From the NCBI GenBank assembly GCA_017744355.1, contig JAGIBK010000003.1:54547-118546 (forward strand): 64,000 bases of DNA, given 5' to 3'. Position numbers and translations under genes: made by a program. How positions within the stretch are numbered: the first letter of the stretch is position 1; each line of letters starts with the position of its first letter. The notes beneath the pieces were generated by a model. It was not told the DNA's origin. It saw only the letters and a program-made list of their open reading frames with translations, and searched no databases. This DNA is from a bacterium (GTDB lineage: Bacteria > Cyanobacteriota > Sericytochromatia > S15B-MN24 > UBA4093). This document shows positions 29,450-37,510 of this stretch, one piece after another.

Positions 29450-31114
29450 TCAGATGTGATAGCCGCGGAAGCGCTCGGTCTTGGCCTGCGGGCGCAGCAC
29501 GGCCGCGTCCTGGACCCGGGCGGCCTCCTGGGCCACGCCGAAGTAGTCGAGCCACTCTTGCGGGGCGTCGATGGTCTCGCCGCCGTGGCTCGTCAGGCGC
29601 GATCGCACCTGGCACAGCACCGGAGTATTGATCGCAACCCCCGCCACCACCACTTGCCCCTTGGTCAGGGCCGGCAGCTCGTCCAGCAGGTCGCGCCCCG
29701 CGCCCTCGACCGAGCTTGCGATGGTCTGCTGGTCGATGGGGTTCACGATCTTCATGATGAACTGGGTCATGCACTGGGAGAGCACGTCGCTGTCCAGCTT
29801 GCCCGGTCGCTGGGTGATGAGGCCGACCCCCACGCCGAACTTGCGGCCCTCGGCGAGGATCGTCTTGAGGATCGGGGTGCTGACGACTGTGGCCCCGGCC
29901 GGTGCGAAGCGGTGGGCCTCTTCGAGCAGCACGAAGACCGGGTAAGGCACGTAGGTCTCGCCGTCGTGGACCTTGCCGTTCTTGGTGTCCATCCGCGCGC
30001 GGTTGATGCGCCTGAGCAGGGTCGAGACGATCACCTGCTGCATGTCCTGGTCGATCTCGTTGAGCTGGATGACCGTGACCTGGCCGGGGGCGAACAGCTC
30101 GGGCAAAGGCAGGTGGTCCCGGTCGTGGAAGATCCGCGATCGCGCGAAGCGGTCCTCGAGGCGCCAGCGGATGCCCTCGATGGTGCTCGCGTTGGAGGAC
30201 GGATCGTCCTCGGCCCCCTCGGTGCGCATGGCATCCAGCGCGTTGAAGAGGTCCTGGAGGCCCCACAGGTGGCCGTCACCCTTGCGGCCCCGGACCCGGT
30301 CGAAGGCCTTGCCGAGGAAGGCGTTCATCTTCTCGCTCATCATGGGCAGCAGCGATCGCACGTCAGTCTCGGTGAGGCTCGAGAAGCGGATCCGCACCTG
30401 ATCGTGCGGGATGATCCGCACCCGAGGCCGGTAGCCGCCCTGCGAGAAGGCCGGATGGTTCTCGAACTCGCGGAAGGTGTGGTACTCGCCGTGGGGGTCG
30501 ATGACGAGCACCGCCGCGCGGTTGTAGGGGCGCAGCAGCTCCTCGATGAGCACACCCGCCGTGTAGCTCTTGCCGGAGCCGGTGGAGGCCAGAATGGCCA
30601 GGTGGGTCGAGACCAGGTTCTTGACGTCCAGCACCACGGGCACCTCGCCGGCCGCTCGGGTCAAGAGCGAGCCGAGGTGGGCCGAGCCTGGCGCCCCTTC
30701 GGTCTTGGGGCTCAAGACCTCGGTCAAGAAGGCGCTACTGGCCAGGTGGACCCGCGCACCCGGATCGGGCATCATCCGCGGATTGACGAAGCCCTTGAAG
30801 CGCGGATCGAAGTAGCCCGCGATCGAGACCGTCACCTCGTAGAGCTCAGGGGTGGCCGCGTCGAAGCCGATCAGCTCGGCCACCTCGGAAGGCGGGATGT
30901 GGGGATCCGCGAGGAAGGCGTCGGGCAGGGTGCGAACGATGGCCTTCTCGGTGATCTTGCCGAGGATCAGGCGCTCGGTGCCGTCCACCGACACCGGGTA
31001 GTAGACGAACTCGCCCACCTTGGTGCGGGCGTTGTCCGGGGTGATGAAGCGGTACTCGTGGGCGCTCTCGCCCGGGCCCTTGACGGTGCCGATCAACAGG
31101 TCTTGGCTCATCAC
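29450..31114 (-). CDS. herA: HerA-like ATPase/helicase (FtsK-HerA superfamily, DUF87-type)
   Basis: Walker A ILASTGSGKSYT, Walker B VFVLLEEAHRF, LITQRP motif, N-terminal barrel-like region. GTG/ATG start overlaps the upstream gene's TGA (GTGATGA). Confidence 0.88.
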   Translation of the reverse strand: MMSQDLLIGTVKGPGESAHEYRFITPDNARTKVGEFVYYPVSVDGTERLILGKITEKAIVRTLPDAFLADPHIPPSEVAELIGFDAATPELYEVTVSIAGYFDPRFKGFVNPRMMPDPGARVHLASSAFLTEVLSPKTEGAPGSAHLGSLLTRAAGEVPVVLDVKNLVSTHLAILASTGSGKSYTAGVLIEELLRPYNRAAVLVIDPHGEYHTFREFENHPAFSQGGYRPRVRIIPHDQVRIRFSSLTETDVRSLLPMMSEKMNAFLGKAFDRVRGRKGDGHLWGLQDLFNALDAMRTEGAEDDPSSNASTIEGIRWRLEDRFARSRIFHDRDHLPLPELFAPGQVTVIQLNEIDQDMQQVIVSTLLRRINRARMDTKNGKVHDGETYVPYPVFVLLEEAHRFAPAGATVVSTPILKTILAEGRKFGVGVGLITQRPGKLDSDVLSQCMTQFIMKIVNPIDQQTIASSVEGAGRDLLDELPALTKGQVVVAGVAINTPVLCQVRSRLTSHGGETIDAPQEWLDYFGVAQEAARVQDAAVLRPQAKTERFRGYHI

Positions 31115-31686
31115 TTCACCGCCTGGATGGTTCGCTGCCAGTTGAGCGCGTTGCGCAGCACCCCGAGCCGTGCGCGATCCTCAGGGCAGAGGGAGTTGAG
31201 GCGATCGAGGACCGCAAGGAGCAAGCTAAGGCTCGCAGGGCCTCCGTTCGCCTGCACCAGGGGCAGGTAGCGCAGCTGGAGGCGCCCCGTCTCGTCCCGG
31301 TGAAAGCGAACAAAGTCCTCGTCCGGCAGGGTCTCGACCTCGGAGTGGACCGGGATCACCTCGCCCGGCACCTCGTGGACCCCGTGCAGAGCGCCCAGGC
31401 GCCCGAGCAACAGGACGCTCACGAGCGTTGCCTGCTCGTCGATGAGGTCCGGCGTGAAGACCCGGATCTCTTGGGGCGAGTTGCTCAGGCGGGGACCGAA
31501 GTGGCCGAAGTCGGGGTTCTGGAGCTGGGAGTCGAAGACGATGCCGATCGCATCCCCCGCCAGGCGCACGAAGCGGCCGAAGGCGTAAGCGCCAGGCTCG
31601 GGAGGCTCGGGGATCTCACCCGGATGGTAGATCTGGCAGACGTAGTCCAGGTGCGATCGCGACGAGACGATCTTTCCGATGCGCAA
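31111..31686 (-). CDS. Hypothetical protein encoded between nurA and herA
   Basis: TTG start at 31686 with GGAGGGAAGG RBS; stop overlaps herA start; GC-biased third positions; no recognisable motif. Confidence 0.6.
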   Translation of the reverse strand: MRIGKIVSSRSHLDYVCQIYHPGEIPEPPEPGAYAFGRFVRLAGDAIGIVFDSQLQNPDFGHFGPRLSNSPQEIRVFTPDLIDEQATLVSVLLLGRLGALHGVHEVPGEVIPVHSEVETLPDEDFVRFHRDETGRLQLRYLPLVQANGGPASLSLLLAVLDRLNSLCPEDRARLGVLRNALNWQRTIQAVK

Positions 31687-31743
31687 GGCCTTCCCTCCAG
31701 TCGAAGCAACCTTTCGATTCTAGAACAAACGATTGATGTCCGG

Positions 31744-32901
31744 CTAGCGGCGCCGGAGCTTGGAGAGGGCCTTCTTCGAGAAGCGCAGCGGCACGCCGCG
31801 CACGTCGAGGAACTCCTGGACGGTGCGGTAGAAGCCGTCGCGATCGGCCGCCGAGAGCACCGCCGTCGCATCCGCCGCCGCCAGCGTGTAGGGGTAGCCG
31901 CCGCCTGCGATCGCATCGGCGCGCACCACGTCCAGCACCTCGTCCAAGAGGCCCGCCTCCTGGATCCAGAGGGGGTACTCCAGGCGCGCGGGCGGCGCGT
32001 CGGCATTGGTCTGCAGGTAGCAGAAGCCGATGCGGCGGGCCCAGTCTCCATAGTTGTCGAGGATCCCCTCGCGCGCGCAGATGGCGGTCGGGGTGCGATC
32101 GCCCCACTCCAGGCGACCCGCAAGCAGCGCGGCGTCGCTGACCCCGCCGGTCCCCGAGAGGCCCCGCCAGCTGGCGAGCATGGTCGCGAGGTCGTGGGCG
32201 TAAGAGGTGTCCACGTAAGCGATGAGCGGCACCCGCGCGGCCTCGGCGTCAGCCAAGAGCCCTCTCACGAGCTCCACGTACCGAAGTGAATAGGCGTCCT
32301 GCTTGCGCTTCTCAGCAAAGGAGACCACCAGGCTGCCGTCCAGGTAGACGATGCGCCCGGGCTCACCCGGCGCGGCCAGGTAGCGCCTGAGGGCGGCCAC
32401 CTCCAGCTCGAAGCGCGCGAGGTCCACCTTGCGCTTGGGCGGGCCCACCTCGTCCTCCTTGAGGTCGTCGGGGCCCAGCACTCGCACGTCCACGTCCTTG
32501 CGGTAGCCTGGGGCCTCGGCGGCATGCAGGTTCTCGAACCACCCCACCTGGACCAGGGCCACCGGCAGCGAAAAGCGCCGATCGGGCTCGATCTGGCTGC
32601 CGTCCGCCGCGAAGGTCGGCCGGCCCGCGAGCTTATTGAAAGCCCAGGCCCTCGCCGCGGAGTGGTCGTTCCATGAAAGGCCGAAAGGGATCCGCGCACC
32701 CCGGTCCCACTCTTCGGTGGGCAGAGCGCCGGGCGCATCGAAAGTGGCAAGGGCCGCCCCGAGCGACGCGGCATCGGCCTCGGAAAGCGCATCGAGGGCC
32801 GCGACGAGCGCTTCGAGCCGTCCGGTCAGGGCGGCGTCGTAGGCGTCGAACGCGCTCGCGCAGGCTTCCAGGGCCCCCAAGAGGCGATCGCGGTAGAGCA
32901 T
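31744..32901 (-). CDS. nurA: NurA-domain 5'-3' nuclease
   Basis: NurA-like N-terminal catalytic motif (…FAADGSQIEPD…); ATG 32901 lies 2 nt after the patatin stop (TGAgcATG); position upstream of herA as in known nurA-herA pairs. Confidence 0.8.
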   Translation of the reverse strand: MLYRDRLLGALEACASAFDAYDAALTGRLEALVAALDALSEADAASLGAALATFDAPGALPTEEWDRGARIPFGLSWNDHSAARAWAFNKLAGRPTFAADGSQIEPDRRFSLPVALVQVGWFENLHAAEAPGYRKDVDVRVLGPDDLKEDEVGPPKRKVDLARFELEVAALRRYLAAPGEPGRIVYLDGSLVVSFAEKRKQDAYSLRYVELVRGLLADAEAARVPLIAYVDTSYAHDLATMLASWRGLSGTGGVSDAALLAGRLEWGDRTPTAICAREGILDNYGDWARRIGFCYLQTNADAPPARLEYPLWIQEAGLLDEVLDVVRADAIAGGGYPYTLAAADATAVLSAADRDGFYRTVQEFLDVRGVPLRFSKKALSKLRRR

Positions 32902-32903
32902 GC

Positions 32904-34172
32904 TCAGGCGTCGAGGGCGTGGTCGAACTCGCGCGCCATGATGAGAGCCTCCTCGGGGATGTCGGCGACACCCAGGTCGGTGGTGACCCAGGCCTCGCGC
33001 CCCAGGGCGAGGTTGGCGTCGTGATAGCCCTGCTGAATGTAGGTCTCGCGCAGCTCAGGGTGGAAGAACCCCTCGAAGACGTCACCCGGCAAGGACGGCC
33101 GGGGGAAGATGGGGATCAAGCGCACGATCCGCCGCCCCAACAGATCGTCGAGGCTCTTGTAGCCTGCCGCCAGGGCCAGGGTCTCGTTGAAGGTGTTGGC
33201 GAGGACATTGCCGTTCTTGCCGCGCTTGAGCAGCTGGTGAAGGCGAGCGAGCTTGTCGTTCTCCTTGCGGACCTTGCGGTAGTTCTGGACGACGAAGCGG
33301 CCCGCGAGCATCGAGAAGACCCGGCCCAGGACCCCGTAGAGCGTGTCGGGCTCGTGCTCGGGTCGATCGACCACCGTCACGCCCGACACCACCAGCACCG
33401 TGTCGATGTCAGGATCCATGCTGATCACGCGGCCGATGGGCGCGTTGTCCATCAGGCCGCCGTCGAACAGCATCGCGCCGCTCGCCGCGTCGCGGGTGGG
33501 CGGGAAGAGGAAGGGAAAGGAGCTCGACGCCTCGATCATCCGCGTCAGGCGGGGCTGGACGTTCGCCTCCCATTCCTCGTGGGTGGTGTCGGCGCTCCAG
33601 ACGTAGTCCTCGTAGACCGAGTAGCGCGCAGCAAGCTCCATGGCGTCGCTCAAGGAGGTGGAGCCCATCAGGTCGGTGGCGACCAGGCTCAGCTTGACGG
33701 GCCGCTTGATGACCTGCGGAAGGCGGACGTAGTCCTCCATGATCTGCCGGACGAAGTGGTGGGAGATGAGCGAGGCGAAGTCGCCACGGATCAACTGCTC
33801 GAAGGCGAAGAGGGAGTCGAAGCCGATGCGGGGGCGGTACTGCCGGCGCAGGGGGTCGACCCCGATGCGGTTGAAGAGGGTGCGCAGGTTGCGGCGCTCC
33901 AATTCGTCGCCGTCCATCCGGCCGAAGCCGTGGTAGAGGTTCTGCGCGTTGACCGTCTCGCGCCAGTGGTACACCAGCTCCGACTCGACCGCCTGGCCCG
34001 TGAACTGACCGGCGGCAATGAGCTGGGCCGCGAAGGTCCCGTTGATGGCCCCCGCCGAGATGCCCACGATGGCGTCGGGGTAGATCTGGTGCTCAGCGAT
34101 GGCCTTGAGGACGCCCGCTTCGTACGCCCCCTTGGCGACCCCGCCGCACAGTACCAAGCCTACCTTGCCCAT
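32904..34172 (-). CDS. Patatin-like phospholipase
   Basis: Oxyanion-hole motif GGVAKGAYEAG, lipase serine motif GISAG, catalytic Asp motif DGGLMDN. RBS GGAGGG before ATG 34172; first gene of the operon. Confidence 0.88.
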   Translation of the reverse strand: MGKVGLVLCGGVAKGAYEAGVLKAIAEHQIYPDAIVGISAGAINGTFAAQLIAAGQFTGQAVESELVYHWRETVNAQNLYHGFGRMDGDELERRNLRTLFNRIGVDPLRRQYRPRIGFDSLFAFEQLIRGDFASLISHHFVRQIMEDYVRLPQVIKRPVKLSLVATDLMGSTSLSDAMELAARYSVYEDYVWSADTTHEEWEANVQPRLTRMIEASSSFPFLFPPTRDAASGAMLFDGGLMDNAPIGRVISMDPDIDTVLVVSGVTVVDRPEHEPDTLYGVLGRVFSMLAGRFVVQNYRKVRKENDKLARLHQLLKRGKNGNVLANTFNETLALAAGYKSLDDLLGRRIVRLIPIFPRPSLPGDVFEGFFHPELRETYIQQGYHDANLALGREAWVTTDLGVADIPEEALIMAREFDHALDA

Positions 34173-34262
34173 ATCGTGTCCCTCCGCGCGAGCGCCATCG
34201 CTTGCACCCTCCTTGTACCCAGCAGGCGCCGGATCGTCGCGCTTACAGCAAAGCGGGCCTTA

Positions 34263-34490
34263 TCCGAAAAAATGGCCAAAATGCTGAGGGCAAGTAGCCA
34301 AATATCAGGATGACAAGGTCACCACCTGGCTTTCAGGCCCAAGCTCGCCCCCCGAAAAAGCGCGAGAGCACGCGTTGTAGAAGGATGGACCAGCCCCTAG
34401 CATCGACGTCGGCGCACAGGGGGACGAGCTTCATTGCTCGGGGCTCCCCAACACCGCCGGATGGCCCTCGGGGCCGGGAGGTTGCGAACG
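34263..34490 (+). repeat. Conserved 5' leader, copy A, upstream of the first RGG/aromatic-rich secreted protein gene
   Basis: Shares long near-identical blocks with 35209..35424 (CCG(A/G)AAAAATGGCCAAA(A/G)TGCTGAGGG…, a ~90-nt core …AGAGCACGCGTTGT…CAGCCCCTAGCATCGAC(G/C)TCGGCGCACA…GGGGG…CGAG, and GGAGGTTGCGAACGATGAAACGGGT). Confidence 0.8.
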
Positions 34491-35114
34491 ATGAAACGGG
34501 TGAAGATGTCGACTTGGATCATCGGCGGCTTAGCCGTTACGGCGACAGCAGCTTGCTCGACCGTGGTTCCGAACACCCCCACGGTCAGCGAAGCTCCGAA
34601 GCCCTTGGCGCAAGTCGCCCCCGATCGCACGATCCTCGCTGAGATCCAGATGCCCAACGAGGATATCTTGAAGTCGCTGCCCAAGGAGATCAGCGAAGCC
34701 GATGCCAAGAAACTGCTCGTTACGCTCCCCATAGATAAGGTTGAGGCTCCTCTGACGATGGGCGACGAGCCGTCGCGCACCACCCTGCAACGGGGCTTCC
34801 GCGGTGGCTTCCGTGGCGGCTTCGGCCGGGGCTTCGGGTTCGGCCGCGGCTTTGGTCGCGGATTCGGCTTCGGCCGCGGCTTCGGCCTCGGCTTCGGCGG
34901 CCTCGGCTTCAGCGGCCTCGGTTGGGGCGGCTGGGGCGGCTGGGGGCCACTCTGGTACCCCTACCAAAACTGGTGGTTCCCCTACACTTGGTCCGGCGCC
35001 GCCTGGACGCCCTACTACTGGCCGACCACCTGGGGCGGCTACAACTACCCCTTCGCGTGGGGCGCGCGCGGACGTTGGTGGCCCTCCGTCTGGCGTTCCC
35101 GCTGGATGTGGTAA
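34491..35114 (+). CDS. Secreted protein (possible lipoprotein) with RGG/FG glycine-arginine repeats and Trp/Tyr-rich C-terminal tail, paralog 1
   Basis: ATG 34491 with GGGAGG RBS; signal peptide MKRVKMSTWIIGGLAVTATAAC; GFRGGFRGGFGRGFGFGRGFG… then WYPYQNWWFPYTW…; GC-biased third positions. Confidence 0.72.
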   Translation: MKRVKMSTWIIGGLAVTATAACSTVVPNTPTVSEAPKPLAQVAPDRTILAEIQMPNEDILKSLPKEISEADAKKLLVTLPIDKVEAPLTMGDEPSRTTLQRGFRGGFRGGFGRGFGFGRGFGRGFGFGRGFGLGFGGLGFSGLGWGGWGGWGPLWYPYQNWWFPYTWSGAAWTPYYWPTTWGGYNYPFAWGARGRWWPSVWRSRWMW

Positions 35115-35126
35115 GCGACACCTAGC

Positions 35127-35173
35127 GCGCGCATGGCGCGGGATCCGCTCGGATCCCGCGCCATGCGCTTTTT
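35127..35173 (+). terminator. Rho-independent terminator of RGG paralog 1
   Basis: gcgcgcatggcgcgggatcc / ggatcccgcgccatgcgc stem with gctc loop, followed by ttttt. Confidence 0.8.
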
Positions 35174-35208
35174 GAGGCGCTGAAACACACCAACCCCTTG
35201 GTGGCCCA

Positions 35209-35424
35209 TCCGGAAAAATGGCCAAAGTGCTGAGGGTAAGTCGAACGATCTCGCTGCAAGAGGGGTGGGGACCTCGATCAGGGCCGAAGCCCGCCCCCTG
35301 CGAAAGCGCCAGAGCACGCGTTGTGGGATTGATGGCCAGCCCCTAGCATCGACCTCGGCGCACAAGGGGGCGAGTTGCTCCTCGGTGTCGCCGAACGGCC
35401 CCAAGGGCCAGGAGGTTGCGAACG
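35209..35424 (+). repeat. Conserved 5' leader, copy B, upstream of the second RGG/aromatic-rich secreted protein gene
   Basis: See copy A; tandem duplication of leader plus gene plus terminator. Confidence 0.8.
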
Positions 35425-36072
35425 ATGAAACGGGTAAACATGTCAACCTGGATCGTCACGGGTCTCGCCCTCACGGCAGCCGGTTGCTCGACTGCGGCTC
35501 CGAGCGTCCCGCCCGTCAGCGACACGCAGAACCCGACCCCTCAAGTCGCCCCTGAGCGCGGCGTTCTCGCGGAAGGCCAAGAGCCCAACGCAGAAGTATT
35601 GAACGCGCTGCCCAAGCGGATCAGCGAAGCCGATGCCAGGAAGATCCTCGTCAACCTGCCCGCTGACAAGGTCCAGGGCTCTTTGACGGGCGACGACGAC
35701 CGTAGCATCATGCAGCGTGGTCGCGGCGGTGGGTTCCGGGGCGGTGGGTTCCGGGGCGGTGGGTTCCGGGGCGGCGGGTTCCGGGGCCGTGGCTTCACGG
35801 GTCGCGGGTTCCGGGGCCGTGGCTTTACGGGTCGTGGCTTCCGGCGATTTACGGGCCGCGGCTTCCGTAACAACATCTTCGTTGGCGGCCTCGGGTTTGA
35901 TACTTTCGCCTACTATCCCTACGCCAACTACTACTATCCGTACTATCTGTACGACGGCTACTACTATCCGTACTCCTACCCCTACTACGGCAATTACTAC
36001 TATCCGTACTACTACGGCGCTGGCTCGTACTACTATCCGAGTTACTGGCGCTACGGCCGCCGGTGGTGGTAG
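35425..36072 (+). CDS. Secreted protein (possible lipoprotein) with RGG repeats and Tyr/Pro-rich C-terminal tail, paralog 2
   Basis: ATG 35425 with identical RBS context; signal peptide MKRVNMSTWIVTGLALTAAGC; GGGFRGGGFRGGGFRGGGFRGRGF… then YYPYANYYYPYYLYDGYYYPYSYPYYG…. Confidence 0.72.
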   Translation: MKRVNMSTWIVTGLALTAAGCSTAAPSVPPVSDTQNPTPQVAPERGVLAEGQEPNAEVLNALPKRISEADARKILVNLPADKVQGSLTGDDDRSIMQRGRGGGFRGGGFRGGGFRGGGFRGRGFTGRGFRGRGFTGRGFRRFTGRGFRNNIFVGGLGFDTFAYYPYANYYYPYYLYDGYYYPYSYPYYGNYYYPYYYGAGSYYYPSYWRYGRRWW

Positions 36073-36092
36073 GCAAGGAGCATCTTGCCGAT

Positions 36093-36135
36093 GGCGCGGG
36101 ATCCCGGCGGATCCCGCGCCGCTTCTTGTTTTGCG
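36093..36135 (+). terminator. Rho-independent terminator of RGG paralog 2
   Basis: ggcgcgggatcc / ggatcccgcgcc stem with cggc loop, followed by gcttcttgttttg. Confidence 0.7.
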
Positions 36136-36213
36136 CGTGATTCATTCGTGATTTGGCCGCAACACGCCGCCCTTACCATCGAAGCCGTCAGCCACATCCC
36201 GAGGAGGATCCCG

Positions 36214-36435
36214 ATGGAGAGCCAATCGCCCGAACTGGAGCAACTCTTTCGCACCATCTCCCTGGCCACCGTCGTCATGGCCGTGGTCTGGCTCGGGCTC
36301 TTCCTCACGGATCCCCCGAGCGTCCTCGGCCCGGCCAGCTTTGCCCAACCCCGCCCCGAGGCCAGAGTGCTCGACGCCTACGACACGAGCGAGCGAGCCG
36401 AGACCTTCCGCGCGATGGTCAAGGATCTGAACTAG
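36214..36435 (+). CDS. Small hypothetical membrane protein (73 aa)
   Basis: GAGGAGG RBS 6 nt upstream of ATG 36214; one hydrophobic helix (ISLATVVMAVVWLGLFL); GC-biased third positions. The track's longer ORF from 36085 has an implausible Arg-rich N-terminus. Confidence 0.55.
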   Translation: MESQSPELEQLFRTISLATVVMAVVWLGLFLTDPPSVLGPASFAQPRPEARVLDAYDTSERAETFRAMVKDLN

Positions 36436-36445
36436 AAGGCGGTGC

Positions 36446-36451
36446 TATAAT
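36446..36451 (+). promoter_or_regulatory. Consensus -10 hexamer TATAAT 6 nt upstream of the mnmA ATG (leaderless-type arrangement)
   Basis: TATAAT at 36446-36451; ATG at 36458; no SD sequence in between. Confidence 0.35.
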
Positions 36452-36457
36452 GGCCGC

Positions 36458-37510
36458 ATGGCAAAGAAAGTCGCAATCGGACTCAGCGGCGGGGTCGACA
36501 GTGCCGTCGCCGCCTACCTCCTCCAGCAAGCGGGACACGAGCTGGTCGGGGTCACCTCGCTCAACTACGCCGAGTCTCGCTGCTGCGACGCACGCTCCGT
36601 CTTCGAGGCCAAGCGCGTCGCCGAGTTCTTGGGCTTCCCGTACCACACCATCGACCTGATCCTGCCCTTCAAGCAGCGGGTGGTGGACGCCTTCACCGAA
36701 GGCTACCAGGCGGGCCTCACCCCCAACCCCTGCACCATCTGCAACGCCGAGGTCCGCTTCGAGGAGCTCTTCGACGAGGCCGAGTGGCGCTTCGAGGCCG
36801 AAGCGATCGCGACCGGCCACTACGCCCGGGTGCGCTACAGCGAGGAGCACGGTCGTCACCAGCTCTTGCGCGGGGTGGATGCGAGCAAGGACCAGTCCTA
36901 CATGCTCTACCGCCTCGACCAGCGCCAGCTCGCGCGTGCCATCTTCCCGCTCGGCGAGCTCCACAAGACCGAGACCCGCGCCATCGCCGAGAAGATCGGC
37001 CTCGAAGTCGCCAAGAAGGCCGATAGCCAAGACGTATGCTTCGTCATGGGCGACACCCTGGGCTTTATCAAGCGCGAGATCGGCGATCGCCTCTCGCCGG
37101 GCCCCATCGTGGACACCGAGGGCAAGCGCCTCGGCACCCACGAGGGCATCGCCTACTACACCGTCGGCCAGCGTAAGGGCCTGGGCATCACCAGCGCCCA
37201 GCCCATGTACGTGGTGCGGCTCGAGCCTGCGACCAACACCGTGGTGGTGGGCCCCCGTGAGGCGGTCCTGGTCGATTCGCTCGTCTCGCGCGAGGTCAAC
37301 TGGGTCTCGTGGGCCCGACCCGACGCCCCCTTCCGGGCCGAGGTCCAGATCCGCTACAAGACGACACCCGCCCCCTCGACCGTCACCCCCACCGAGGACG
37401 GCTTCCGGATCGACTTCGACGAGGGCCAGTTCGCGGCCTCTCCCGGCCAGGTGGCTGCGGTCTACGTGGGGGACGTGCTGGTAGCAGGCGGCGTGATCGC
37501 TGTTTCCTGA
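36458..37510 (+). CDS. mnmA: tRNA 2-thiouridine(34) synthase (tRNA-specific 2-thiouridylase)
   Basis: PP-loop motif GLSGGVDSAVAAYLL and catalytic Cys region NPCTICNAEVRF. Confidence 0.92.
   Translation: MAKKVAIGLSGGVDSAVAAYLLQQAGHELVGVTSLNYAESRCCDARSVFEAKRVAEFLGFPYHTIDLILPFKQRVVDAFTEGYQAGLTPNPCTICNAEVRFEELFDEAEWRFEAEAIATGHYARVRYSEEHGRHQLLRGVDASKDQSYMLYRLDQRQLARAIFPLGELHKTETRAIAEKIGLEVAKKADSQDVCFVMGDTLGFIKREIGDRLSPGPIVDTEGKRLGTHEGIAYYTVGQRKGLGITSAQPMYVVRLEPATNTVVVGPREAVLVDSLVSREVNWVSWARPDAPFRAEVQIRYKTTPAPSTVTPTEDGFRIDFDEGQFAASPGQVAAVYVGDVLVAGGVIAVS

Follow-up and report, generated by a model that had tools for sequence, protein, structure and literature searches.

Bacterial lipoproteins, the substrates of Lgt and LspA described by the PROSITE pattern PS51257, begin with a basic region and a hydrophobic stretch that leads up to an [AG]-C junction, and continue as a tether. 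Short strand-turn units, four to five in a row and with aromatic residues at fixed positions, are known from curli CsgA and from the choline-binding (CW_binding) repeats. The eukaryotic glycine-arginine-rich (RGG/GAR) and FG-repeat regions (FUS, hnRNP and nucleolin; the FG nucleoporins) combine RGG, RGF and GFG motifs, using arginine rather than lysine, in stretches predicted to be disordered, together with a tyrosine-rich partner region on the same chain; Arg-Tyr interactions take part in the phase separation of FUS (PMC5927716). Here we describe two adjacent plus-strand genes, g1 and g2, whose products share features with each of these systems. The genes lie in a stretch of 64,000 nucleotides, referred to below as the window (GenBank assembly GCA_017744355.1, contig JAGIBK010000003.1, positions 54,547 to 118,546), from a member of the Sericytochromatia, an uncultured, non-photosynthetic sister lineage of oxygenic cyanobacteria. 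To our knowledge, almost nothing is known of the cell envelope of this lineage.

Judged from their sequences, g1 and g2 belong to an undescribed family of lipoproteins, so far found in Sericytochromatia-type genomes, and an anatomy consisting of a lipid anchor, a conserved aromatic module and an accessory loop is well supported. The mature part of these proteins matches no described lipoprotein family. They differ from the eukaryotic RGG/GAR and FG proteins in being exported, in the poor conservation of the loop, in having no RNA recognition motif (RRM) and in a tyrosine-rich region that is predicted to be folded rather than prion-like; the likeness is one of composition, not of homology. The predicted signal peptide also argues against a cytoplasmic nucleic-acid-binding role.

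Anatomy of the g1/g2 family

Two adjacent plus-strand genes with a common layout had been proposed in a first-pass annotation of this DNA. Both open reading frames (ORFs) were confirmed, as was the layout that they share. Their features are listed here with the predicted local distance difference test score (pLDDT) from AlphaFold2 where one applies; HMM denotes a hidden Markov model.

34491-35114, plus strand: g1, predicted lipoprotein of 207 residues, tryptophan-type paralogue, stop codon counted in (ORF, GGAGG, family HMM E=5.7e-37, AlphaFold2)
34491-34556, plus strand: g1 signal peptide and lipobox, MKRVKMSTWIIGGLAVTATAA-C, with Cys22 at 34554-34556
34656-34742, plus strand: g1 helix-pair motif, residues 56-84, LPKEISEADAKKLLVTLPIDKV; predicted helices 56-62 and 69-75, pLDDT 94-96
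34791-34949, plus strand: g1 Gly/Arg/Phe low-complexity loop (RGG, RGF, GFG, GWG), residues 101-153; pLDDT <50 over residues 93-144
34950-35111, plus strand: g1 Trp-rich, proline-punctuated beta module, residues 154-207; predicted strands within 154-202, pLDDT 87-93; conserved columns P164, P174, P187 and P198
35425-36072, plus strand: g2, predicted lipoprotein of 215 residues, tyrosine-type paralogue, stop codon counted in (ORF, family HMM E=1.7e-44, AlphaFold2)
35425-35487, plus strand: g2 signal peptide and lipobox, …GLALTAAG-C, with Cys21 at 35485-35487
35587-35673, plus strand: g2 helix-pair motif, residues 55-83, LPKRISEADARKILVNLPADKV; predicted helices 55-61 and 68-74, pLDDT 92-94
35716-35904, plus strand: g2 RGG/RGF low-complexity loop, residues 98-160; pLDDT <50 over residues 91-157
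35905-36069, plus strand: g2 Tyr-rich, proline-punctuated beta module, residues 161-215; eight predicted strands over 162-214, pLDDT 79-94, and column conservation

The homologue search called for by the first-pass annotation recovered a real family. A profile of both proteins gave 34 matches at E<=1e-3 in a word-indexed search of a 5.8-billion-cluster collection, one of which (P0033) is an unrelated low-complexity sequence, while HMMER, run exhaustively over 1.84 billion representatives, gave 133 clusters (50% identity) at E<=1e-3, 90 of them at E<=1e-10. The named sources are Candidatus Sericytochromatia (LC003, LC028), "Cyanobacteria bacterium UBA8530" and one "Pantanalinema sp." metagenome-assembled genome (MAG), in which the gene order is as in the window; the profile search of genome contigs returned two loci, both in Sericytochromatia MAGs. 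Scans of g1, g2 and 33 relatives against Pfam and NCBIfam gave nothing above cut-off. The sole match of the family profile in a sequence search of the PDB was the signal peptide of BamB/YfgL (E=0.095), and nothing on the family was found in the literature on Sericytochromatia lipoproteins, Tyr- or Gly-rich bacterial lipoproteins, YYYPY, YYPYY and GYYYP motifs, or RGG motifs and the periplasm. The statistics on anatomy given below are drawn from an alignment of 104 members.

The order of elements in the members begins with a cysteine, followed by a variable Pro/Thr/Ala/Gln tether, a DRxVL-like motif and an LPxRISxADA signature. The cysteine is invariant (104/104) as the +1 residue of a lipobox and lies at residues 16-27, preceded by a basic segment and then a hydrophobic one at the N-terminus; because of this invariance, g1 and g2 are predicted to be lipoproteins, anchored rather than freely released. 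A lipobox of the PS51257 type (Lys or Arg near the N-terminus, a hydrophobic stretch free of D, E, R and K, then [LIVMFWSTAG]2-[LIVMFYSTAGCQ]-[AGS]-C with the cysteine at about 15-35) is present in 95 of the 104, among them g1 (…VTATAA-C22) and g2 (…LTAAG-C21), and many relatives have L/F-G-C at this position. The remaining nine start within a few residues of the hydrophobic stretch, or have no N-terminal Lys or Arg, or have proline at -3 or -4; those that start near the hydrophobic stretch are probably 5'-truncated or mis-started. Position +2 is Ala, Ser, Thr or Gly, and the disordered tether comes next. The earlier description of secreted proteins, with a signal peptide and a cysteine after the cleavage region, thus stands as regards export, but the cysteine is the lipobox +1 residue itself and the signal is one for anchoring, not release.

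What had been called a conserved ISEADA linker proved to be a family-wide signature, LPxRISxADAxxxLVxIDxxK, and a second conserved motif, (Y/F)SVQQ(R/W), lies between it and the low-complexity loop. Five relatives show weak matches (E=0.016-0.16) to the periplasmic domain of ExbD/TolR (PF02472) over the strand-helix region up to and including the ISEADA motif. This candidate relationship was rejected: the score is about 13 bits against a gathering cut-off of 25.4 bits, and a comparison of the family profile with ExbD of E. coli by hhalign gave a probability of 1.9%.

The C-terminal region is extreme in composition (25% Trp in g1, 43% Tyr in g2) and conserved column by column. Its prolines are near-invariant (P164 in 103/103, P174 in 95/104, P187 in 99/104 and P198 in 100/104), aromatic residues make up 95-100% of several columns, the turn positions are Gly, Asn or Ser, and the penultimate conserved column is Trp in 72 of 94. 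The tails of g1 and g2 had been thought to have diverged strongly, one becoming Trp-rich and the other Tyr-rich. The paralogues do differ in this way, but the tails have not diverged freely: all six prolines (6/6) and 20 aromatic positions align, and Trp in g1 faces Tyr in g2 at nine of these 20, each change requiring two nucleotide substitutions. Most members use Tyr, while three (P0088, P0097 and P0107) have Phe-only tails. Because Trp-rich and Phe-only versions exist, the conserved feature is an aromatic residue at fixed positions and not the chemistry of tyrosine, and a conserved function in dityrosine cross-linking or other Tyr-specific chemistry was rejected.

AlphaFold2 was run on g2 with a 33-sequence alignment and on g1 with a 104-sequence alignment; the five models of each run scored alike. 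In both runs two short helices are predicted over the ISEADA motif (pLDDT 92-96) and a beta-meander over the aromatic region (pLDDT 79-94), while the signal peptide, the tether and the RGG loop all fall below 50. The predicted template modelling scores (pTM) are 0.47 and 0.52 despite only about 40% of the residues being ordered, which suggests that the helix pair and the aromatic sheet form one body. The column-specific conservation and the high-confidence fold in the two runs speak against the aromatic region being an unstructured low-complexity tail; that it is a conserved, folded domain is a well-supported prediction. The fold of the family is probably undescribed.

The variable loop and alternative functions

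Between the helix pair and the aromatic module lies the block that first attracts attention. Clustered repeats of the GAR-like kind are present, as originally described (two RGG, five RGF and eight GFG in g1; four RGG and five RGF in g2), and g1 has no Lys, Asp or Glu in this loop. Pooled over the family, the loop is 34% G, 15% R, 12% F, 9% Y, 4% W and 4% H, with 0.3% K, 1% D and 0.1% E. Its DNA is made of tandem repeats (15/30 nt at 34794-34945 in g1; 15/30/45 nt at 35725-35844 in g2), and it appears to evolve by slippage because of these repeats. It is the least conserved part of the proteins: its length ranges from 5 to 81 residues (median 37), it is nearly absent in P0013, P0082 and P0108, and it is replaced by GH-rich repeats in P0010, P0058 and P0059, by GW-rich repeats in P0083 and P0100 and by GY-rich repeats in other members. 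These figures do not sustain the idea of the RGG/GAR block as the functional module; its reading as a disordered, variable and accessory loop is well supported by the alignment and the models. Weak profile matches on this Gly/Phe/Arg block (PF16208 in 11 members, the plant glycine-rich proteins PF07172 in three; best E=0.0011) were noted as well, and a relationship to Keratin_2_head (PF16208) was rejected, the score being 19.5 bits against a gathering cut-off of 28.2 bits, driven by composition and confined to the variable loop. A caution follows for similar cases, namely that a striking RGG/FG repeat can be dispensable while a seeming low-complexity tail is the conserved domain.

One reading, in line with the first-pass annotation, is that of exported sticker-and-spacer proteins, in which the arginines of the RGG block and a disordered Tyr/Trp tail would drive cation-pi condensation or nucleic-acid binding and so give a gel or condensate in the periplasm or matrix. 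The composition does match that of the Arg-Tyr interactions of FUS (PMC5927716), the loop is predicted to be disordered and, across the family, draws on Arg or His while Lys, Asp and Glu are next to absent, and the C-terminal halves have a pI of 10-11.6. However, the block that would have to carry the function is dispensable in some members and the tail, with its fixed Pro, Gly and aromatic columns, appears to be folded, so that an RGG-centred view is weakened; nor did the profile scans detect an RNA- or DNA-binding domain. We regard this reading as unlikely.

A different possibility is that the aromatic strand-turn repeats assemble, either into a lipid-anchored functional amyloid or fibre or into an oligomeric beta structure of the outer membrane recognised via its C-terminal aromatic residue. 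The tail comprises four to five [YFW][YFW]P[YFW]-x-Y units with Gly at the turns, the consecutive aromatics would make both faces of the sheet aromatic, and the AlphaFold2 meander is regular. The C-terminal residue is Trp, Tyr or Phe in 85 of the 160 sequences from the two homology searches, and aromatics alternate in the last strand, which resembles the beta-signal of outer-membrane proteins. On the other hand, the strands, of 3-9 residues and with a proline in the middle, are shorter than would suit a barrel that spans the membrane. The pTM and the conserved helix pair agree with a small, closed domain, no secretion or nucleator genes of the curli or Fap kind occur near g1 and g2, and there was no match to a Pfam amyloid repeat. 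Assembly of this type is improbable on balance.

Four members (P0062, P0076, P0093 and P0113) carry a C-terminal cupredoxin of the plastocyanin/azurin type above the Pfam gathering score, and P0122 is borderline; the domain (PF00127/PF13473) was absent from g1 and g2 in the Pfam scan. Cupredoxins are generally extracytoplasmic, and the fusions fit an exported location for this reason. They suggest that the module can anchor another domain. The contigs that carry P0062 and P0113 are too short to include neighbouring genes. The fusions could also mean that metal binding, or electron relay with a cupredoxin partner, is the task of the aromatic domain, joined in some members by a His-rich loop; several members have GGHGGH-type loops, and chains of Tyr and Trp can carry electron holes. 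This is very unlikely for the family at large, as the fusions occur in only about 4 of the 133 clusters, the loop and tail of g1 and g2 have no His, Cys or Met ligands, the Phe-only variants cannot be redox-active and there are no copper or respiratory genes near g1 and g2.

Highly improbable, finally, is a role as precursors from whose C-terminus a Trp/Arg/Pro-rich antimicrobial peptide, or a ribosomally synthesized and post-translationally modified peptide (RiPP), is released: the g1 tail (…WWFPYTW…RGRWWPSVWRSRWMW) resembles peptides of the indolicidin and tritrpticin type in composition and the paralogues are diversified, but the lipobox is invariant, the conserved positions span the whole 55-residue module, and no protease, modifying enzyme, exporter or immunity gene is adjacent. 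The assembly, copper/redox and antimicrobial readings are thus minority possibilities.

Coding evidence, leaders and neighbouring genes

The N-terminal 100 residues of g1 and g2 are 57% identical (BLASTP E=2e-34), in agreement with the earlier view of paralogues with a conserved N-terminal half. Over about 100 N-terminal residues the ratio of nonsynonymous to synonymous substitutions (dN/dS) is 0.36 at a synonymous divergence (dS) of 0.77, indicating an old duplication under purifying selection. The duplicated unit comprises the coding sequence, about 230 nt upstream of it and the terminator, and a search of the window with the family HMM yields these two copies and no others. In both genes GGAGG precedes the ATG with a spacing of 9 nt, and the GC content of third codon positions (GC3) is 0.82 in g1 and 0.77 in g2, compared with 0.54-0.60 at positions 1 and 2, in a genome of 67% GC. 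The g2 protein from Met6 onward is identical to P0001, NCBI MBO9540767.1, "hypothetical protein [bacterium]". The g1 protein, tried with either plausible start, is absent from a 15-billion-protein collection that contains g2; g1 may be unannotated or differently called in the source record.

That the ORFs are non-coding products of GC-rich repeats can be excluded, although high-GC DNA yields long opposite-strand shadow ORFs and the g1 protein is missing from that collection, since frame-specific motifs are common to more than 100 divergent homologues, GC3 and dN/dS are those given above, and both genes come with their own Shine-Dalgarno site and terminator, as the first-pass annotation, which had thought an artefact unlikely, had also noted.

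The elements found around the two genes are the following.

34270-34290, repeated at 35216-35236, plus strand: conserved upstream box of 21 nt, AAATGGCCAAAATGCTGAGGG; only these two sites in 64 kb, 0 expected by chance
34375-34403, plus strand: candidate g1 promoter, TTGTAG-17 nt-TAGCAT, proposed from leader alignment and pattern
35321-35349, plus strand: candidate g2 promoter, TTGTGG-17 nt-TAGCAT, proposed from leader alignment and pattern
34463-34481, plus strand: GGCCC-TCG-GGGCC hairpin abutting the GGGAGG Shine-Dalgarno site of g1
35397-35415, plus strand: GGCCC-CAA-GGGCC hairpin abutting the AGGAGG Shine-Dalgarno site of g2
35129-35168, plus strand: g1 intrinsic terminator, an 18-bp stem plus TTTTT
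36092-36121, plus strand: g2 terminator hairpin of 13 bp, its core near-identical to the g1 terminator

As a hairpin terminator follows each gene, g1 and g2 each look monocistronic. The TTGnnn-17 nt-TAGCAT pair is kept in five close leaders (g1, g2, L001, L002 and L003), and a similar TTGnnn/TAnnnT pair is also seen in the leaders of distant loci; it is a candidate promoter that matches 8 of 12 consensus positions and for that reason was not listed by the promoter scan. The 21-nt box, written AAATGGCCAAAnTGCTGAGGG or in degenerate form AAATGGCCAAA(A/G)TGCTGAGGG, precedes each candidate -35 element by about 85 nt and is also kept in L002 and L003. A regulator might bind there; a sigma-54 reading of this TGGCC…TGCTG box was dropped, as its GG-GC spacing is 3 nt too short. 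In the GGCCC-NNN-GGGCC hairpin the stem is invariant over four leaders (g1, g2, L001 and L002) while the loop is TCG, CAA, ACA or ATA, and the hairpin might modulate ribosome access. No known RNA family accounts for the conserved leader, since Rfam gave no match in the window at the gathering threshold, nor in 34100-36500 at E<=5. Folded as single sequences, the two leaders did not clearly outdo their shuffled versions (z=0.30 and -1.85).

On one side, g1 and g2 are flanked by a minus-strand HerA-x-NurA-patatin cluster. On the other side, on the plus strand, follow a transmembrane ORF of 73 residues, mnmA, a TetR regulator, a short-chain dehydrogenase/reductase (SDR) and an aldehyde dehydrogenase. 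The same gene order is found in L001, with two copies of the family, and in L002, with one. The minus-strand cluster (29450-34172) consists of HerA/DUF87 (29450-31114), an ORF of 191 residues (31111-31686), NurA (31744-32901) and a patatin-like phospholipase (32904-34172); it is also present in L002, and PADLOC reports HerA matches and a weak phospholipase-effector match. It could be a HerA-NurA module of the defence type, with a lipase as effector. The 73-residue ORF (36214-36435, plus strand), with one hydrophobic helix and no Pfam match, ends 22 nt before mnmA (36458-37510) and is kept at the same place in L001, L002 and L003.

Tandem arrays of one to three paralogues recur, often upstream of mnmA; elsewhere a family gene stands alone, in unrelated surroundings. 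Genomes of the more distant LC028 type have a tandem row of three family genes immediately upstream of mnmA and a NUDIX gene; such three-gene arrays, with intergenic distances of 345-579 nt, occupy 7001-9583 in L006/L007 and 6001-8687 in L013. Their members fall into a Tyr/Arg subtype, one extended at the C-terminus by a Gly/Tyr stretch that contains Cys, and one rich in Phe and Arg; these subtypes are kept between two independent sources. Among further relatives (P0078, P0117, P0119 and P0137), some have C-terminal (T/V)VP(R/K/Q)TV-like repeats, rich in Val, Pro, Thr and Gln, and others have Pro/Gln-rich tails, with no Pfam match to either.

A possible role in the envelope

We read g1 and g2 as independently transcribed paralogues for envelope lipoproteins, and tentatively favour an envelope-anchored binding or tethering module as their role. 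The mature protein would start with its lipidated N-terminal cysteine and a disordered Pro/Thr/Ala tether of about 30 residues, followed by the short helix pair (LPxRISEADAxxLLV motif). Next would come the cationic, disordered loop of Gly, Arg (or His) and aromatics, without Lys or acidic residues and resized by repeat slippage, and last the module of about 55 residues, in which [YFW][YFW]P[YFW] strand units are joined by Gly/Asn turns. The helix pair and the beta-meander may pack as a small, two-layer alpha/beta domain that the loop splits, leaving one face of the sheet exposed to solvent and almost entirely Tyr, or Trp/Phe in some paralogues. Such a flat aromatic face could stack on sugar rings or on other aromatic surfaces, while the Arg-rich loop could engage an anionic polymer (peptidoglycan-associated or extracellular polysaccharide, lipopolysaccharide, possibly extracellular DNA) or other copies of the protein. 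The paralogues of an array, differing in aromatic type and in loop, would then tune the interaction. We regard polymer binding or self-association as the likeliest kind of function. The retention of two to three distinct paralogue subtypes in arrays across sources speaks for the interpretation as a whole.

Several points weigh against this interpretation. The strict form of the lipobox is [LVI][ASTVI][GAS]C (PMC12462473), and neither g1 nor g2 conforms to it, with Thr and Ala, respectively, at position -3 instead of the canonical Leu, Val or Ile. With repetitive aromatic sequence, AlphaFold2 can predict more regular beta structure than there is, and aromatic residues on both faces of a sheet could just as well point to a fibre or to insertion into a membrane. 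No functionally informative neighbour was found in the flanks of g1 and g2 or in the contexts of the singleton relatives. Function and ligand are what we infer for the two proteins, as are the packing of helices on the sheet, the location in the envelope and any self-association.

A bolder version, which we consider doubtful at best, has a new small fold whose sheet is almost wholly aromatic (about 45% Tyr, exchangeable for Trp or Phe) and which is interrupted by a hypervariable, disordered Arg/Gly/aromatic loop; contacts of Arg with aromatics, and of aromatics with one another, would join lipid-anchored copies into a cohesive gel-like or adhesive envelope layer in Sericytochromatia. If true, this would be a bacterial, extracytoplasmic counterpart of the eukaryotic sticker-and-spacer condensate proteins, in which tandem paralogues tune the material properties. 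If the prediction holds, a near all-Tyr sheet whose positions can carry Trp or Phe instead would be unusual among protein folds, and the family may offer a naturally occurring series for comparing how the choice of aromatic residue tunes binding or self-association. As a lineage-restricted family of predicted lipoproteins in what look like regulated tandem arrays, it is a candidate group-specific component of the Sericytochromatia envelope.

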